Shown: positions 2-46,704, counted from the stretch's first letter. The stretch is 55,284 nt of DNA from a virus (IMGVR_UViG_2648501186_000003:1-55284); one strand, 5' to 3'. A program made the numbers and translations. The notes: generated by a model from the letters alone, not told the origin.

Positions 2-637
2 AGTGCGATCGCAAACTCATCCGTATCTGAAGAAAAAGCTCTTGAGTGGGCCGACTCTTTTATCACGGAAGAAGTGGAAGAAGCCCGCGCTGGACAGAAT
101 GGTGGGATAGACCTGCGCAAGGAACTTGCTGATATTTATCGCCTGACCGGCGGTAAAATTTCGACCTTATCAAAGGTGGTTCACCACCAGGGAAGGGCAT
201 ATGCAAATCTTAATGGTGTTGTTGCTGTCAATTTGAACGATGAAAATGCAAGTGCACTGTGGCACGAGCTGGGTCATCATCTTGAGTACAGTAACCCTGG
301 TTTGTTAGAGAAAGCCCGGTCATTCCTGAAGGCCAATGTTGAAGGGGATAAGCCATCTTTCGTTAATATCGGTGGGCGTGGCAAGCCTGAATGGTGCTTC
401 AGATCTCGATTGAGTAATATTTATATGGCGAAGGTATACCCGCCAGCCTCAGTGAGTAACTCCGGGAAAATTCGGCAGAAAGCACCGACTATTTCAAAAA
501 CATCAGCAACGGAAGTATTCTCTATGGCTCTTCAGTTGTATCATGACAAAGAGGCCGCTGCCGCATCACTGATGAATGGTGACGGATTGCTGGAACTGTT
601 ATTAGGTGTGGCAAAGGAGCTAAATAATGCAGATTAA
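2..637 (+). CDS. 5'-truncated CDS, open to the window edge; C-terminal region with an HExxH zinc-metallopeptidase-like motif
   Basis: Frame is open from nt 2 with no stop until 635-637; the track start at 74 is an internal GTG. Motif WHELGHHLE. Function inferred from the motif only. Confidence 0.45.
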   Translation, partial: SAIANSSVSEEKALEWADSFITEEVEEARAGQNGGIDLRKELADIYRLTGGKISTLSKVVHHQGRAYANLNGVVAVNLNDENASALWHELGHHLEYSNPGLLEKARSFLKANVEGDKPSFVNIGGRGKPEWCFRSRLSNIYMAKVYPPASVSNSGKIRQKAPTISKTSATEVFSMALQLYHDKEAAAASLMNGDGLLELLLGVAKELNNAD

Positions 638-4967: not shown

Positions 4968-7698
<2,731 letters not shown>

Positions 7699-27824: not shown

Positions 27825-28868
27825 TTATCTAACGCTCGACGAGTGACTTGTGATAGCGCCGACTCCAAGCGCGTAATCAAAGAACAATCGTTGATGCATC
27901 GCCAGCCTGCCGTGCGTCTTCTCCCAATTATCGCGGTCACGCTCAATATCACGCTGGCATGACTGGCACAGAGGAATTGCGTAAATGTCATGCGCGCATA
28001 ATCGACTATGACGAACGATATAAGGCGTAATGTGAGCGCCAGCTCCCGCAGCTCCACACCCACAGCATGGACGGGAAGCAACAAAGTCCATGTACTCAGG
28101 TAATTTTAGCGATTGCAGTTTTGGTATTTTGAAATGCGCCATGCCAGGGTCGGAGTCAACATCCACAGGGCATACTTTTGCACGCATCGGCGCGGCGCGT
28201 TCTTCCATCATCTGAACATATGCTGTAGCACGATCGTCATACGGGCGAATATCCGCCTCTTTCAAAGGTCCGCTATCCTGCGGAGCAGCCTTCATCTTAT
28301 TTATTGATATGCGGCAGACTTCTTCCGGCATCAGGTGCATCATGTTACGCATGAAAGCCCACCAGCACAGCTCCTGAATACTTAAATCATGGCTATCTGA
28401 AAGGCCCATTTCCTGACGGGCGACATCCAGTATCCAGTTAACGCGATTATTATGCAGCGTTTCTTTCAGCTCATTAAAACCACGCATCCGGTAATGGTTA
28501 TCGTGATGCCAGCACAACAACACCGCGCTATTGTCTCGTTCTGCGTGGACAATATGGTTGTCACACCAGCTACGATCTGCGGCCTGGCATTGCCCCTCTT
28601 TCCTGCGCAACCACGCCACCAGCGCGTCAATTCCACCAATACGGCGAAACAGTTCATCGCTGTTAAAAAACGGCTGCAACGCCTCATTTGTTGCCATAGT
28701 TTGCTCGGAAACAACGAGGCCGTCGTCCATGTGCTCGATTAACTCACGCGGCACCGGCTCCATAATAAATTTACGGCCAGCCTCCACCAGCTTTCTGACT
28801 TCCTGATCCACTTTGAATGTGGCGACGCCAAGCTCTTTTTGTACAAAGGGAGTAATTACGGCTTTCAC
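27825..28868 (-). CDS. Cys/His-rich hypothetical protein (P1 pdcB position)
   Basis: 347 aa with a [12 protein letters not shown]...C..C..H cluster; named by synteny. Confidence 0.5.
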
Positions 28869-38959: not shown

Positions 38960-39648
38960 GCTGCACCATCACCTTTCACTTTCATCAATGTCAGGTTTCC
39001 GCAAAATACGGCACCAGTGTCGATATAATGCTGATTCCAGAATGTCTTCGGGCTTTTCACCGGAGTGTGACCAAAGATAAAACGATCTGCGCCCGAAATT
39101 TCGCCACCAATATCATCCATCGAATCACTGATACGCTCGCGCGCCCAGACAACGTTGAAAAGCGGCACCTCCTTACCGAATTGATATTCATTATCCGGAT
39201 AGTCGGCATGGGCTATAACGATAGTTTCTTGCCCGGTGTTCAACTCAATGATATAGGGCAGTCGTCTTACCAACTCCACCAGCGCCCAGGCTAATATTTC
39301 CTGATCAGTGTCCAGCATGAAGAACCATTGTCCGCCATTCATTAGCCAGTTATTCACGTTGCCATCTGGACTTAACGCATCAATCATCAGCCACTCATGG
39401 TTCCCCATCACTGCCCTGAACCAGGGCATCTGCAATAGTTCCAGACATTCGACATTTTCAGTACCGCGATCGATAAGGTCGCCGACCGATATCAGTAAAT
39501 CCTGCGCCGGGTCAAAATCCACACGATGGAGTTCGGACATCAGTCTGGTGTAGCAACCATGCAGATCACCAACAACCCAGACATTCCTGTATTTGGTACC
39601 GTCGATACGGTGATAAATTGTGGGTGCCATCATGTATTCTTCAGCCAT
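38956..39648 (-). CDS. ppp: Ser/Thr protein phosphatase (lambda-phosphatase-like metallophosphoesterase)
   Basis: GDLHG, GDLIDRG and GNHE motifs. Confidence 0.85.
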
Positions 39649-40256
39649 TCTTTAAGAGTCATCTGCGGAATACCTCCCATTTTCCCGCATGAAACAACGT
39701 CAATCTGTTCACGCGCAGACTGGAATAACAAAGGCAGGTGACTTAGATTTTTTGGCGTGCCGCCGGAGTGAACGCGTGGTTCTTGTGTAGCGTCAACGCC
39801 CACCAGGGCGACATGTTTGAATCCGATATGGAAAGCCAGGTTCAGAGCGCCATATGCACTATTGCCGCTGGCAATTTCATTCTCATCTTCGCAAAGTCCG
39901 AAATGTGCGGACCAGCGCCACGCCCACCACTCGGGAGAATTCGTATTTTTTGGCTCCATGCCACGTTCAGCCACACGACGGAAGCACAGAACGCCGTCTC
40001 TGACTTCACGTTCTTTAACATCGGGTAGTGCCATGCAATAACAAACACCACGGCGACGGCGGCCACGACCAACGCGCCGCATATTGTCTGGCGATGGATC
40101 AAGTGTGAAAAAATAAGAAGCGCGGTTCAGCCAGTCGATGGCCCCATTGACCGCTATAATCGGCACTCCGCGCGGCGCAACAAAGTTTGCGGCGCTTGGG
40201 CCACTGCCGACGATAATAACGCGATCACTGCCTCTAAATTTATTCTTGGGAAACAT
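39630..40256 (-). CDS. GT42/CstII-like (Maf/DUF115-like) putative glycosyltransferase, paralog A
   Basis: IIVGSGPS...IIAVNG and [24 protein letters not shown] motifs. Confidence 0.5.
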
Positions 40257-40816
40257 TGAATTGCACTGCTCCTACTTGCATTCAAAATATGTAAATCTGC
40301 GTGTTTTTTGCGGGTATCCAGGAACTGCTGTTGCCATTTTGAAATAGACACCTGCGTTGGATTCCGTAGGGCTTGAGGGTGTGCTCCATGCCAATGAAGG
40401 CCGTTTTGCAGAGAACAGTCATAGCCGACTAATACCACTACCTCAGCCCCTGATTCAGCAGCCAGACTGATAGCCTGCGCGCCGCTATTTACCCCTTCCG
40501 CCGGTCCACAATATCGCCTGTACTCCAACGAAAATGATTTCGCCGCCGCCAGGTTGGCTGTCACTTTGCGGAATCTCCCTCCCGGTATGGTGGATCCGTA
40601 TTGCTTCCACCATGACAAATCACCGGCGTATAAGGCATAAATGTCATCGAACATCTGCCAGGAATTGTTAACTGCGATGATTGAACAGCCAGTTTTTTCT
40701 ATAGCAGCACAGTCCTCACGAGTGAGTGACGGACCGCTACCGACACAAAAAACAGTCCTAGTCGCCCTGGGTGGTATGTTCATTCTCAGCTGCAAATTCA
40801 GCCTCCAGGCGAGCAT
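40154..40816 (-). CDS. GT42/CstII-like putative glycosyltransferase, paralog B
   Basis: CVGSGPS...IIAVNN and NSGAQAISLAAESGAEVVVLVGYD motifs; 3' end overlaps paralog A by about 100 nt. Confidence 0.5.
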   Translation of the reverse strand: MLAWRLNLQLRMNIPPRATRTVFCVGSGPSLTREDCAAIEKTGCSIIAVNNSWQMFDDIYALYAGDLSWWKQYGSTIPGGRFRKVTANLAAAKSFSLEYRRYCGPAEGVNSGAQAISLAAESGAEVVVLVGYDCSLQNGLHWHGAHPQALRNPTQVSISKWQQQFLDTRKKHADLHILNASRSSAIQCFPRINLEAVIALLSSAVAQAPQTLLRRAECRL

Positions 40817-40979: not shown

Positions 40980-41558
40980 TTAAGCGGCAGACAACCACTT
41001 ATCGCCGTTCAATACATGCTCAATAGCCTCACCCTTTTTAAGGCTTATGTATTCCAGGATGGCGGTAATCGCTTGTTCTGCACCATACGCAAGAACAACG
41101 TAGTAGCCTTCCTCTCTAAGCCTGCGCATCCAGGCGATCTGCTCTTTCGTCGGGGCTTTACCATTTGGTTCTTTAAGCTCAATTCGCATGCCGTGATAAA
41201 TACCGCATGCTTTATCGAGACTCATGTCCGGATAACCTTTTTTCTGCCCTTCAGCCTTCATTTTCCCGGCGGTTGCTTTTGAACGTTTCCCTCCGTTAGG
41301 CGTTGCATGCAACAGCTCATAGATGTCAGGGTGCTTGCGTTCGAAGTAATCAAAAATGAAAACCTGCTCGAAGTGCTCGCAATTTCCGTCGCGCAGGTCT
41401 GGGTTCTTTGCCAGTGCTGCAAGTGCCTTCGCATGTGGAGAAACTTCTTTTACCGGCGCAAGCGATAAGAATGGATCCTTTTTGGTTTTTGGCCTGGACC
41501 GCCCCTTATTTCGACGCTCACTAAAAGCCTGAAACTCTTCCTCAGTAAAGCGCAACAT
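40980..41558 (-). CDS. VRR-NUC domain nuclease-like protein
   Basis: D...ELK core (DMSLDKACGIYHGMRIELKEPNGK...EQIAWMRRL). Confidence 0.6.
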   Translation of the reverse strand: MLRFTEEEFQAFSERRNKGRSRPKTKKDPFLSLAPVKEVSPHAKALAALAKNPDLRDGNCEHFEQVFIFDYFERKHPDIYELLHATPNGGKRSKATAGKMKAEGQKKGYPDMSLDKACGIYHGMRIELKEPNGKAPTKEQIAWMRRLREEGYYVVLAYGAEQAITAILEYISLKKGEAIEHVLNGDKWLSAA

Positions 41559-41560
41559 AA

Positions 41561-41806
41561 TCAGTCAAATCCTGCCGGTCGCATGCCATATTTACGCTGT
41601 TTTGCAGCCTGCTCTTCCCTGTGCCATTGCGCACATTCAGCGTCACAATAAATGCCTGATTCAATCGATTCATTGCAGTAACGACACTTCCCTGTAAATA
41701 CCTGGCTCACGACCTGTGCCTGCTTTCTGATGTTATCGATGGCCATGTCTTTGAGAGCTTCTAACTGATTCATGCTCAGCTCTGCATCATCAACACGTTC
41801 TGCCAA
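41561..41806 (-). CDS. Small zinc-finger protein (CxxC...C...C)
   Basis: CRYCNESIESGIYCDAEC; coupled to the VRR-NUC gene. Confidence 0.45.
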   Translation of the reverse strand: MAERVDDAELSMNQLEALKDMAIDNIRKQAQVVSQVFTGKCRYCNESIESGIYCDAECAQWHREEQAAKQRKYGMRPAGFD

Positions 41807-41880: not shown

Positions 41881-41952
41881 ATTTTATTAAGTTAAATTTT
41901 CAACAAATGACTAGCAGTAAAATCACCATCATCTATTTCTGGCAGGCTGACT

Positions 41953-42330
41953 ATGGCTACATCAATCACTACAACCCAAAGCACCCCACAATATCCTCTG
42001 TCGCGGTATGACGACCGCAACATAGCCGATCCAATACTCAGGGCAGAGCTACGCAAAGAGGTGATGCTTATGTGTGAATCGAACGACAAGAATCTGACGA
42101 TTTATTACGTTCTTCCCGATGAGCAATATCGCCCGGATTTGCTGGCTTACCGTATGTGGGGCATAGCAGAGCTACGCTGGGTTGTGACGCTCGCCGCCGG
42201 GCTTGAGGATGAGTCTCAGGGTATGACTGTTGGCAAAAAATTAAAACTCCCACCAGCCACATGGATCCGCGAAATGATTCGCCATTTCCAATATGACGGC
42301 CAGGTGATAGGGACATTATCCATTGCGTAA
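41953..42330 (+). CDS. Hypothetical structural-cluster protein (125 aa)
   Basis: First gene of a plus-strand block of six tightly packed or overlapping ORFs. Confidence 0.45.
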   Translation: MATSITTTQSTPQYPLSRYDDRNIADPILRAELRKEVMLMCESNDKNLTIYYVLPDEQYRPDLLAYRMWGIAELRWVVTLAAGLEDESQGMTVGKKLKLPPATWIREMIRHFQYDGQVIGTLSIA

Positions 42331-42339
42331 GGGAAATGA

Positions 42340-43557
42340 ATGCCAACTGAATATGCTCGCGACAACCTTGGTCGCTATCAGACTGATGGATTAAGTGCAA
42401 AAGACTTTAATAAGGTCTTCGATCTTATCCGTAAACAGCAGCGTCAGAATCGGCGAAACGCGCGACGTACACTCACTCCAAGGATTATGGGGATGCGCAA
42501 CCGCGAACTTGAGGCATTCCTCAGCCTTGGGAAAAAGAAAGATGGCACCTACTTTACGCCCGAAGATATACGCAGTTTCAACACCTCAAGGCAGGCTCAT
42601 AAAACCAAATTCAAGAGCACGGTACCCGGCATTACCTATGCTCAGCTGGTGGCGCAGTCCACCAGCATTGATATAAAACGCGCTAACAACAAAGTTTCTG
42701 ATGGCACAGGGATCAAAGCCGCGACATTCCTCGGGCTAAAACACAACCTTGCATTGATATCTGTTAATGCCTCGGATGAGTCGGTCCACCAGCATCACCG
42801 TGTCAGAATTCGATTTGAGGAATGGGATAAAGCCGTTGAGGATATTGCTGAAGACGGTGCGAAAAAAGCCCGAATCGCTGCCGATCTCTGCAAGGGCCGG
42901 GTATCTTTCGACTGTGATTGTGGACGCCATCAATACTGGTATCGTTATATGGCCACTGCTGGTAACTATGCTGTCGCGCCGCCAAAAGAGTATGCCTTCC
43001 CCAAGATCCGCAACCCTGATCTGACTGGTGTGGCTTGCAAACATGTTTTGCACGCTATGACGCGTTTTCAGTCTCCCACATGGCACAAGGCCATCATTAT
43101 TGCCCTAGAAAAAGCAGCTGAACAGGTGGCCTTCGGCGATGACAAGCGGAAGACAACAACCTATTTCAAAGGCGAACTGACTAAATCGCTTGCGCGCAAC
43201 CGGACAACAACGACGGATCAGGCTAAAGCGGCGCGTGAGTATGAGCTGTATCTGAAATCTCAGGATGCATTAGGCAAAAAACTACGCGCCAAAGATAGCG
43301 CCACGGACAACGTTCGCCGGTTGTTAAAAAAAGCTCGCACCACGGCAAACAGGAAGAATGCCGAACTAAAAGCCTCGCGGGTGAGGGAAGCCCAGGCTCG
43401 CGCTGAAGCCGACGCCCTCAAAAAAGCCCTGCAAACGCAGGCGAACAACCTCATAAAGTTTTTCATGAGTCAGGGAATGGACAAGGCCGCTGCCACTGCG
43501 CAGGCGCGAAGCATTCTTGAGACACAAATTAACGAAGCCCGTAAACGGAAAGGATAA
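42340..43557 (+). CDS. SWIM-type zinc-finger protein with basic coiled-coil C-terminus
   Basis: FDCDCG...GVACKHVLHAM (CxC...CxH). Confidence 0.5.
   Translation: MPTEYARDNLGRYQTDGLSAKDFNKVFDLIRKQQRQNRRNARRTLTPRIMGMRNRELEAFLSLGKKKDGTYFTPEDIRSFNTSRQAHKTKFKSTVPGITYAQLVAQSTSIDIKRANNKVSDGTGIKAATFLGLKHNLALISVNASDESVHQHHRVRIRFEEWDKAVEDIAEDGAKKARIAADLCKGRVSFDCDCGRHQYWYRYMATAGNYAVAPPKEYAFPKIRNPDLTGVACKHVLHAMTRFQSPTWHKAIIIALEKAAEQVAFGDDKRKTTTYFKGELTKSLARNRTTTTDQAKAAREYELYLKSQDALGKKLRAKDSATDNVRRLLKKARTTANRKNAELKASRVREAQARAEADALKKALQTQANNLIKFFMSQGMDKAAATAQARSILETQINEARKRKG

Positions 43558-46704
<3,147 letters not shown>

Follow-up and report, generated by a model that had tools for sequence, protein, structure and literature searches.

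A divergent SWIM-type module predicted in gp25, an essential tail protein of bacteriophage P1

What does a protein with the cysteine and histidine signature of a SWIM zinc finger do among the tail and baseplate genes of a phage? The question is raised by an open reading frame in a viral DNA of 55,284 nucleotides (IMGVR_UViG_2648501186_000003; the whole of this stretch is called the window here). The original prediction, made from the sequence alone, took the product for a SWIM zinc-finger protein with a highly basic coiled-coil tail, unexpected among structural genes and perhaps a chaperone, a regulator or an injected protein. The coordinates of the reading frame were correct: an ATG start is followed by 405 intact codons and a stop, and an AAGGGA-type ribosome binding site (RBS) lies 5 nt before the ATG. 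The encoded protein is 99.3% identical across 405 aa to P1 gp25 (AAQ14053.1, 'tail stability'), and a PHROGs profile search matches residues 1-405 to phrog_1722, 'tail protein', with an E value of 2e-227. The 5 kb around the gene have 98.9% nucleotide identity to P1 and its relatives P7, RCS47 and SJ46. Judged by these identities, the window is a P1-like phage or plasmid, and the reading frame is the orthologue of the long-known gene 25 of bacteriophage P1. The window and P1 proteins have the same length, operon and neighbours, and differ at three residues with no functional distinction. What had seemed out of place is a classical essential tail gene.

The placement of the gene within a tail and baseplate block is borne out by its neighbours, which are gp26 (wedge), gp7, gp24, gp6 (hub) and gp5 (spike) (Table 1). 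The curated record of P1 lists gene 25 in second place within the late operon 26-25-7-24-6-5, which the promoter LP26 drives. The corresponding segment of the window aligns with P1 LP26 without gaps at an offset of 36339, with two substitutions and TAAAAT as the -10 element. The gp26 stop and the gp25 ATG are separated by 9 nt, and the gp25 stop and the gp7 ATG by 3 nt. The literature describes gp24 as a T4 gp15-like terminator, and the P1 annotation gives gp25, gp7 and gp24 the common label 'tail stability'. No NCBIfam model matched gp25, gp7 or gp26.

Table 1. Features of gene 25, its product and its operon in the window (positions counted from the first nucleotide of the window)
Feature	Position	Strand	Basis or remark
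Putative late promoter LP26 (Lpa-dependent)	41905..41923	+	coordinates carried over from P1 annotation
Gene 26 (gp26), T4 gp53-like baseplate wedge subunit	41953..42330	+	phrog_1269, E 3e-40
Gene 25 (gp25), 405 aa and stop	42340..43557	+	identity to AAQ14053.1; PHROG 1722
N-terminal region, aa 1-95, with basic helices aa 20-39 and 74-90	42340..42624	+	model, conservation
Core of predicted globular domain, about aa 120-245	42697..43074	+	SWIM-type module in the broad sense
First ligand pair, C192-D-C194	42913..42921	+	invariant in 132 representatives
Conserved insertion, aa 195-232, GRHQYWYRY...PPKEYAFPKIRNP...G	42922..43035	+	alignments; insertion relative to Pfam SWIM
Second ligand pair, C233-K-H235, at N-terminus of helix 234-242	43036..43044	+	100% invariant; predicted secondary structure
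C-terminal Ala/Lys/Arg-rich basic helix aa 294-377, break at G379, helix aa 382-404	43219..43554	+	AlphaFold
Gene 7 (gp7, 'tail stability')	43561..44289	+	P1 annotation; RBS inside gene 25
Genes 24, 6 (gp27-like hub) and 5 (spike)	44258..46704	+	P1 annotation, profile matches; context only

Some other genes of the window deserve a remark in their own right. Those for PmgM (40980-41558, minus strand) and PmgL (41561-41806, minus strand) are divergent from the gene 26 operon, and a C1 operator and late-promoter region is common to both sides. The C-terminal ~70 residues of PmgM match Holliday junction resolvase/endonuclease PHROGs, and PmgL is a DksA-like zinc-finger protein (phrog_54). The genes pmgP (39630-40256, minus strand) and pmgO (40154-40816, minus strand), annotated in P1 only with a 'putative morphogenetic function', overlap by ~100 nt. 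Both match phrog_4603 ('alpha-2,3-sialyltransferase') and phrog_2111, and these common matches suggest that they may be a paralogous glycosyltransferase-like pair. A second CxC...CxH pattern match was found in PdcB (27825-28868, minus strand), within a Cys-rich C-terminal region; the RCS47 copy is an HNH endonuclease in RefSeq, and the PdcB match was rejected as Cys-rich HNH-type, not SWIM.

Piya et al. (2023, PMC10695390) count genes 25 and 26 of P1 among the essential genes already identified by amber mutations. Knockdown of either gene by CRISPRi reduced plating only about 10-fold and was not lethal, and genes 7, 24, 6 and 5, which are essential and lie downstream, suffered no polar effect from the roadblocks in 25 and 26 (PMC10695390). 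The authors ascribe this weak effect to ineffective roadblocks (PMC10695390); alternatively, gene 7 could be preceded by an internal promoter.

The signature itself is genuine. Its two ligand pairs, C192-D-C194 and C233-K-H235, have 38 residues between them and use three of the four cysteines in gp25; the fourth, C184, is not conserved. The pattern CxC-x(6-45)-CxH appears in 18 of 200,000 composition-preserving shuffles of gp25 (9e-5). A word-index search found 498 homologues, and an exhaustive profile search at E<=1e-3 extended the family, clustered at 50% identity, to at least 627 clusters. Among 19 close homologues, which reach down to 40% identity, none has lost any of the four ligands, and these are likewise 100% invariant in 132 full-length representatives of the family with a median identity of 28%. 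The sole invariant positions among these 132 are G97, C192, C194, E217, P221, N225, G230, C233, K234 and H235. Pattern matches of the form CxC-(36..43)-CxH are present in 142 of 150 family representatives, the remaining eight being fragments, and the spacing across the family, 36-43 residues, is mostly 37 or 38. Conservation in homologues had been set beforehand as the refuting test for the motif; the four ligands are kept throughout, and the motif stands.

It is less simple to say whether this signature denotes a SWIM domain, and the sequence on its own answers with only a marginal yes. The Pfam SWIM model (PF04434) gives no match to window gp25 at E<=1, and none to the 19 close homologues at E<=10. 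When 126 diverse relatives are scanned against Pfam, SWIM is the commonest family, found in 19 of them (15%) at E<=1 with a best E value of 0.0024; the next is coiled-coil noise, with five members. In the family member P0210, positions 11-36 of the 38-position SWIM model cover 53 residues that include both ligand pairs. Its score is 14.9 bits, compared to a Pfam gathering threshold of 19.6 bits that none of the gp25-family members scanned reaches. This alignment indicates that the gp25 family carries an insertion of ~27 residues inside the finger. The Pfam model allows at most 26 positions from CxC through CxH, and the spacing in the gp25 family is about twice as large. Sequence searches of the PDB with the single gp25 sequence and two profiles returned compositional coiled-coil noise only, at E values of 0.07 and above.

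Structure prediction supports the SWIM assignment at the level of the fold. The AlphaFold model of full-length gp25 is mediocre (pLDDT 78), and Foldseek finds no matches to it in the PDB. Residues 1-290, modelled from an alignment of 126 sequences, reach a pLDDT of 95.2 and a pTM of 0.92. A Foldseek search of viral models (BFVD) gives seven matches at E<=1e-3, all small phage proteins, of which two are labelled 'SWIM-type domain-containing' by UniProt. The predicted structures of such proteins from Achromobacter phage Motura (A0A514CSJ7) and Burkholderia phage BcepSauron (A0A482MLT0) resemble the gp25 core, with ~160 columns aligned (Foldseek E 2e-5 to 8e-4). They differ from gp25 in being only 139-256 aa long, without long N- or C-terminal extensions, and in having 13-19% identity to it. 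With the SWIM domains of PF04434, ZSWIM8 (9rwz) and Shu2 (6dex), gp25 has in common the CxC...CxH ligands, a helix that starts at C-K-H-[VIL] and the preceding beta-strands. It departs from them in the 36-43 residues that lie between its ligand pairs, with an insertion bearing invariant E217, P221 and N225, and in that its module forms part of a phage tail protein whose own C-terminal tail is helical and basic.

The predicted fold thus supports a divergent SWIM-type module in gp25 that falls outside Pfam membership, and the Cys3His site presumably binds zinc. Of the original assignment, the invariant SWIM-type signature has held up, together with SWIM as the commonest weak Pfam match of the family; the window protein itself has no Pfam match. 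The fold assignment appears to be new. It could be found only after the release of the ZSWIM8 structure in 2026, and a literature search found no link between P1 gp25 and SWIM.

A reading without zinc should be set against this one. The four residues could form a conserved disulfide or some other structural motif, with a likeness to SWIM that arose by convergence in a lineage-specific tail protein. Such a view would account for the missing Pfam match of window gp25, for a spacing twice that of the Pfam model and for the empty Foldseek search against the PDB. It is nevertheless very unlikely in our estimation. The C, C, C, H invariance is absolute and sits in the SWIM-typical context C-K-H-[VIL], SWIM is the only recurrent Pfam family besides coiled-coil noise, and gp25 is probably cytoplasmic, where disulfides would be unlikely to form.

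The SWIM-type core is flanked by basic regions on both sides. The N-terminal 95 residues have a pI of 10.8 and include R38 and L45, which are nearly invariant in the family. In the predicted core, three beta-strands and two helices are followed by a strand ending in CxC, the insertion and a helix starting at CxH. The insertion is the most conserved stretch of gp25; besides its invariant residues E217, P221, N225 and G230, residues R196, R202, Y203 and K222 are at least 90% conserved. Its definition as a conserved element is apparently new.

The C-terminal ~110 residues are modelled by AlphaFold as one long helix and a short terminal helix, and are 45% Ala, Lys and Arg. Residues 294-405 have a pI of 10.6 and a net charge of +15, and the whole protein has a pI of 10.1 and a net charge of +35. 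The tail varies across the family in length (42-230 aa) and sequence, is almost always basic, and ends in a moderately conserved short helical motif at the extreme C-terminus. The coiled coil that was predicted for it is unproven, since there is no heptad signal beyond that of shuffled sequences in this Ala-, Lys- and Arg-rich composition. Hydrophobic occupancy of a and d positions is 0.62, compared to 0.56 +/- 0.08 in shuffles, and 42% of shuffled tails reach the observed value. What remains of the predicted 'highly basic coiled-coil tail' is its basic character. This is a property of the family as a whole: the pI of the gp25-family protein is 9.8-11.3 in 83 of 83 viral loci, whereas only ~8% of other open reading frames of at least 250 aa exceed a pI of 9.5.

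Of these 83 loci, 80 are diverse viral ones with a GC content of 39-69%, collected in a search that started from a distant lead sequence; the others are those of P1, Acinetobacter phage ABMM1 and Xanthomonas phage Rb1. Genes were called with GC3 weighting, with the gp25-family reading frame forced in, and were then clustered. A gp53-like gene of ~104 aa lies directly upstream of the gp25-family gene in 62 of the 83 loci, and an acidic gene of ~169 aa directly downstream in 71. In several loci where the upstream gene seems to be missing, there is an uncalled gap of fitting size. The median intergenic gaps are -1 nt upstream and +2 nt downstream. The upstream family belongs with gp26 in phrog_1269, and its HMM matches P1 gp26 with an E value of 1e-8. 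In distant phages the three genes adjoin fibre-like and head genes, not hub and spike genes, which implies that they move as a unit. Genome scans place the gp25 family across Beta- and Gammaproteobacteria, in phages and phage-plasmids. Gene 25, a gp53-like gene upstream and an acidic gene of ~170 aa downstream thus stay together and are translationally coupled. This conserved three-gene module is apparently new, and its presence in hundreds of related phages is a further argument against regarding gene 25 as an intruder in its operon.

The downstream member of the module is the least uniform. In the P1 clade this +1 gene is gene 7, and a Vibrio phage-plasmid and three intermediate loci have clear gp7 homologues at the same position; two of the three intermediate loci encode homologues of ~170 aa without the acidic extension. 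In distant loci the +1 family is phrog_4597, for which no function is annotated and whose profile gives nothing significant against the PDB (best E 0.96). Neither BLASTP nor HMM nor hhalign comparison established that gp7 is homologous to this distant +1 family. As the gp7 profile deepens, the hhalign probability for phrog_4597 rises from 0.9% through 1.6% to 19% (P 0.0012, same register), a link that is only suggestive. The module is therefore partly positional.

The charge of gp7 is striking when set beside that of gp25: its net charge is -33, of which its N-terminal 80 aa contribute -25, compared to +35 for gp25. The acidity of the +1 protein is not distinctive in itself, being common to most structural proteins of the loci examined. 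In the Vibrio gp7 homologue (L164, 6149-6766), an acidic low-complexity arm is C-terminal, unlike the N-terminal arm of P1 gp7. Since the arm is differently placed or absent among gp7 homologues, it looks like a mobile appendage on a core of ~165 aa.

Two further observations concern the wider loci. In one metagenomic locus (L166, 5467-6888), the gp25-like and gp7-like genes are separated by a Tad2-like gene (PF11195) and a toxin-antitoxin pair of the PhdYeFM/Fic type; the insert has the look of a moron island for defence or counter-defence within a tail operon. A family of ~290 aa occurs in 59 of the 83 loci at a variable distance from the three-gene module. Its profile matches a P1 reading frame at window positions 4968-6017 (minus strand) with an E value of 2e-37, and a representative matches phrog_1801, 'tail fiber protein'. 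This match implies that more P1 tail genes are common to the distant clade in a different gene order.

The genetic setting bears directly on the idea that gp25 is a transcriptional or other gene regulator. A basic protein with a zinc finger could suit such a role, and the homologue from Xanthomonas phage Rb1 is annotated 'MvaT'. The gene is expressed from a late promoter in a structural operon, its phenotype is specific to tails, the gp25-family gene is fixed between tail genes in all 83 loci, and Pfam and NCBIfam scans detect no regulator family. On operon, phenotype and synteny we reject the regulatory role that had been offered as one possibility, and we leave it a probability close to nil. 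The Rb1 member (L003, 6767-7888), deposited as 'transcriptional regulator MvaT', has a basic tail rich in Ala and Arg and keeps the CxC-37-CxH motif intact, so that its name is probably a mis-annotation caused by composition. Upstream of it lies a 948-aa gene that looks like one for a tape-measure or transglycosylase protein.

If gp25 acts in the tail, it might do so as a part of the finished particle or as a factor in its assembly. Gonzales et al. (2022, PMC9024508) detected gp25 in purified virions by LC-MS/MS with two peptides and 8.4% coverage, and considered it either structural or an assembly cofactor; their HHpred entry for it reads 'None >50%'. Four of the nine two-peptide proteins in the same study are clearly non-structural (PMC9024508). 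Virion proteomics, proposed as a check along with the original prediction, thus exists in published form and yields a signal for gp25, at a level that non-structural P1 proteins also reach; virion association is uncertain either way. A 2025 cryo-EM preprint of the P1 tail and baseplate models ten baseplate proteins, among which gp25 and gp7 are absent, and finds six copies of gp26 linking hub and wedges. The model in this preprint excludes the terminator, tape measure, lumen and neck.

These data leave some room for gp25 as a stoichiometric structural component that mechanically locks the sheath or baseplate from a part of the virion outside the cryo-EM model. It could sit at the head-proximal end of the tail or in the neck, together with the gp15-like gp24; in the lumen of the tube or hub, beside the tape measure Sit; or in the flexible periphery of the baseplate. 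That gp25 passed the LC-MS/MS threshold at all speaks for this arrangement, as do its 'tail stability' label, held in common with gp7 and gp24, and the position of the terminator, tape measure and lumen beyond the modelled region. A long basic helix would also suit an electronegative tube lumen. Against it, two peptides are few for a protein of 46 kDa and match the level of the non-structural proteins above, gp25 is missing from the ten modelled baseplate proteins, and a globular domain of ~33 kDa would not fit within the lumen. On balance we consider a stoichiometric role unlikely, though it has a real claim to attention.

A different kind of virion protein should also be weighed. SWIM domains were originally proposed as DNA-binding modules, and the whole gp25 family is extremely basic. 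gp25 might be a DNA-binding virion protein that is ejected with the DNA, a functional analogue of Mu protein N or T4 gp2. Its basic helices and zinc module would then bind the DNA ends, injected or transduced, and its tail phenotype would be secondary. To our knowledge, no identity has been given to the protein that joins the ends of P1-transduced DNA. Mu N is encoded in a tail gene cluster. Like gp25, Mu N and T4 gp2 are basic, and in T4 the neighbours of gene 2 include the tail genes 3 and 53. The T4 neighbourhood, with a basic end protector gp2 (pI 10.1, no Cys) and an acidic sheath stabiliser gp3 (176 aa, pI 4.4) beside gene 53, mirrors the sizes and charges of the gp53-like, gp25 and +1 proteins. 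Published work shows that abortively P1-transduced DNA is circular, with its ends joined by protein. As a more specific form of this reading, gp25 could be the P1 virion protein that joins injected DNA ends and holds abortively transduced fragments in protease-sensitive circles, which we rate a long shot. If it were true, gp25 would travel inside the tail or attached to it and be passed on together with the DNA, in the manner of Mu protein N, and the module of gp53-like, basic SWIM and acidic ~170-aa proteins would be the P1-supergroup counterpart of the T4 gene 53/2/3 neighbourhood.

The general proposal of an ejected DNA-binding protein is likewise improbable. The annotated phenotype of gene 25 is a tail defect, with instability of tails, rather than the formation of normal-looking, non-infectious particles, and the closest solved SWIM modules are protein organisers. 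The distribution of Chi in P1, according to published work, suggests that RecBCD reaches injected ends. Pfam and NCBIfam scans detect no DNA-binding domain in gp25, and unlike gp25, gp2 lacks cysteines. There is no detectable homology to Mu N or T4 gp2, and comparison with T4 gp2, gp3 and gp4 finds no similarity. The hhalign probability for gp25 and T4 gp2 is 0.1%; since the positive control, the gp26 family against T4 gp53, also failed, these T4 comparisons are powerless.

The role that we propose for gp25, quite possible and put forward tentatively, is that of a zinc-scaffolded adaptor in tail morphogenesis that docks on gp26 and/or gp7 and keeps tails extended. The closest solved SWIM module, that of ZSWIM8, is described as the 'central organizer' of a protein superdomain and not as a contact to nucleic acid. 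This precedent, the tail-specific essential phenotype, the weak or absent virion signal, fixed co-translation with gp26 and charge complementarity to gp7 all point to an adaptor or assembly factor. Under this proposal, a globular domain of ~290 residues would be organised around the divergent SWIM-type Cys3His site, whose role would be structural, as in ZSWIM8, and the conserved 38-residue insertion would be the likely contact surface specific to the family. Co-translated from the late operon with gp26 and the acidic gp7, gp25 would dock on one or both during baseplate and tail assembly. Its long basic helix would contact an acidic partner, which might be the acidic arm of gp7 or an acidic tail surface. 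Tails built with gp25 would stay extended, those built without it would be unstable, and gp25 would be transient or present in low copy in the finished virion. We infer both the partners and the stabilising mechanism.

There is a precedent for such a factor in T4, whose gp51 and gp26 are non-virion baseplate assembly factors, an analogy already drawn by Gonzales et al. (2022, PMC9024508). Like gp25, these two proteins are essential for tail or baseplate formation and are weak or absent in the virion. The two are not known to be related to gp25 in sequence or fold, and we know of no protein of the T4 gp51/gp26 class that is a SWIM protein.

P1 is a standard tool of bacterial genetics, and few of its essential morphogenesis genes still lack an assigned molecular role, gene 25 among them. 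The SWIM-type site and its insertion, the basicity of the protein and the gene module turn the label 'tail stability' into testable hypotheses. The SWIM-type module is a new handle on an old gene and not a new kind of system, which makes for a modest but concrete advance. The result would also set right deposited genomes in which the gene product is called, for instance, 'MvaT' or 'hypothetical protein'. Since the family is large and extends over phages of Beta- and Gammaproteobacteria, a function assigned to gp25 in P1 would transfer widely.
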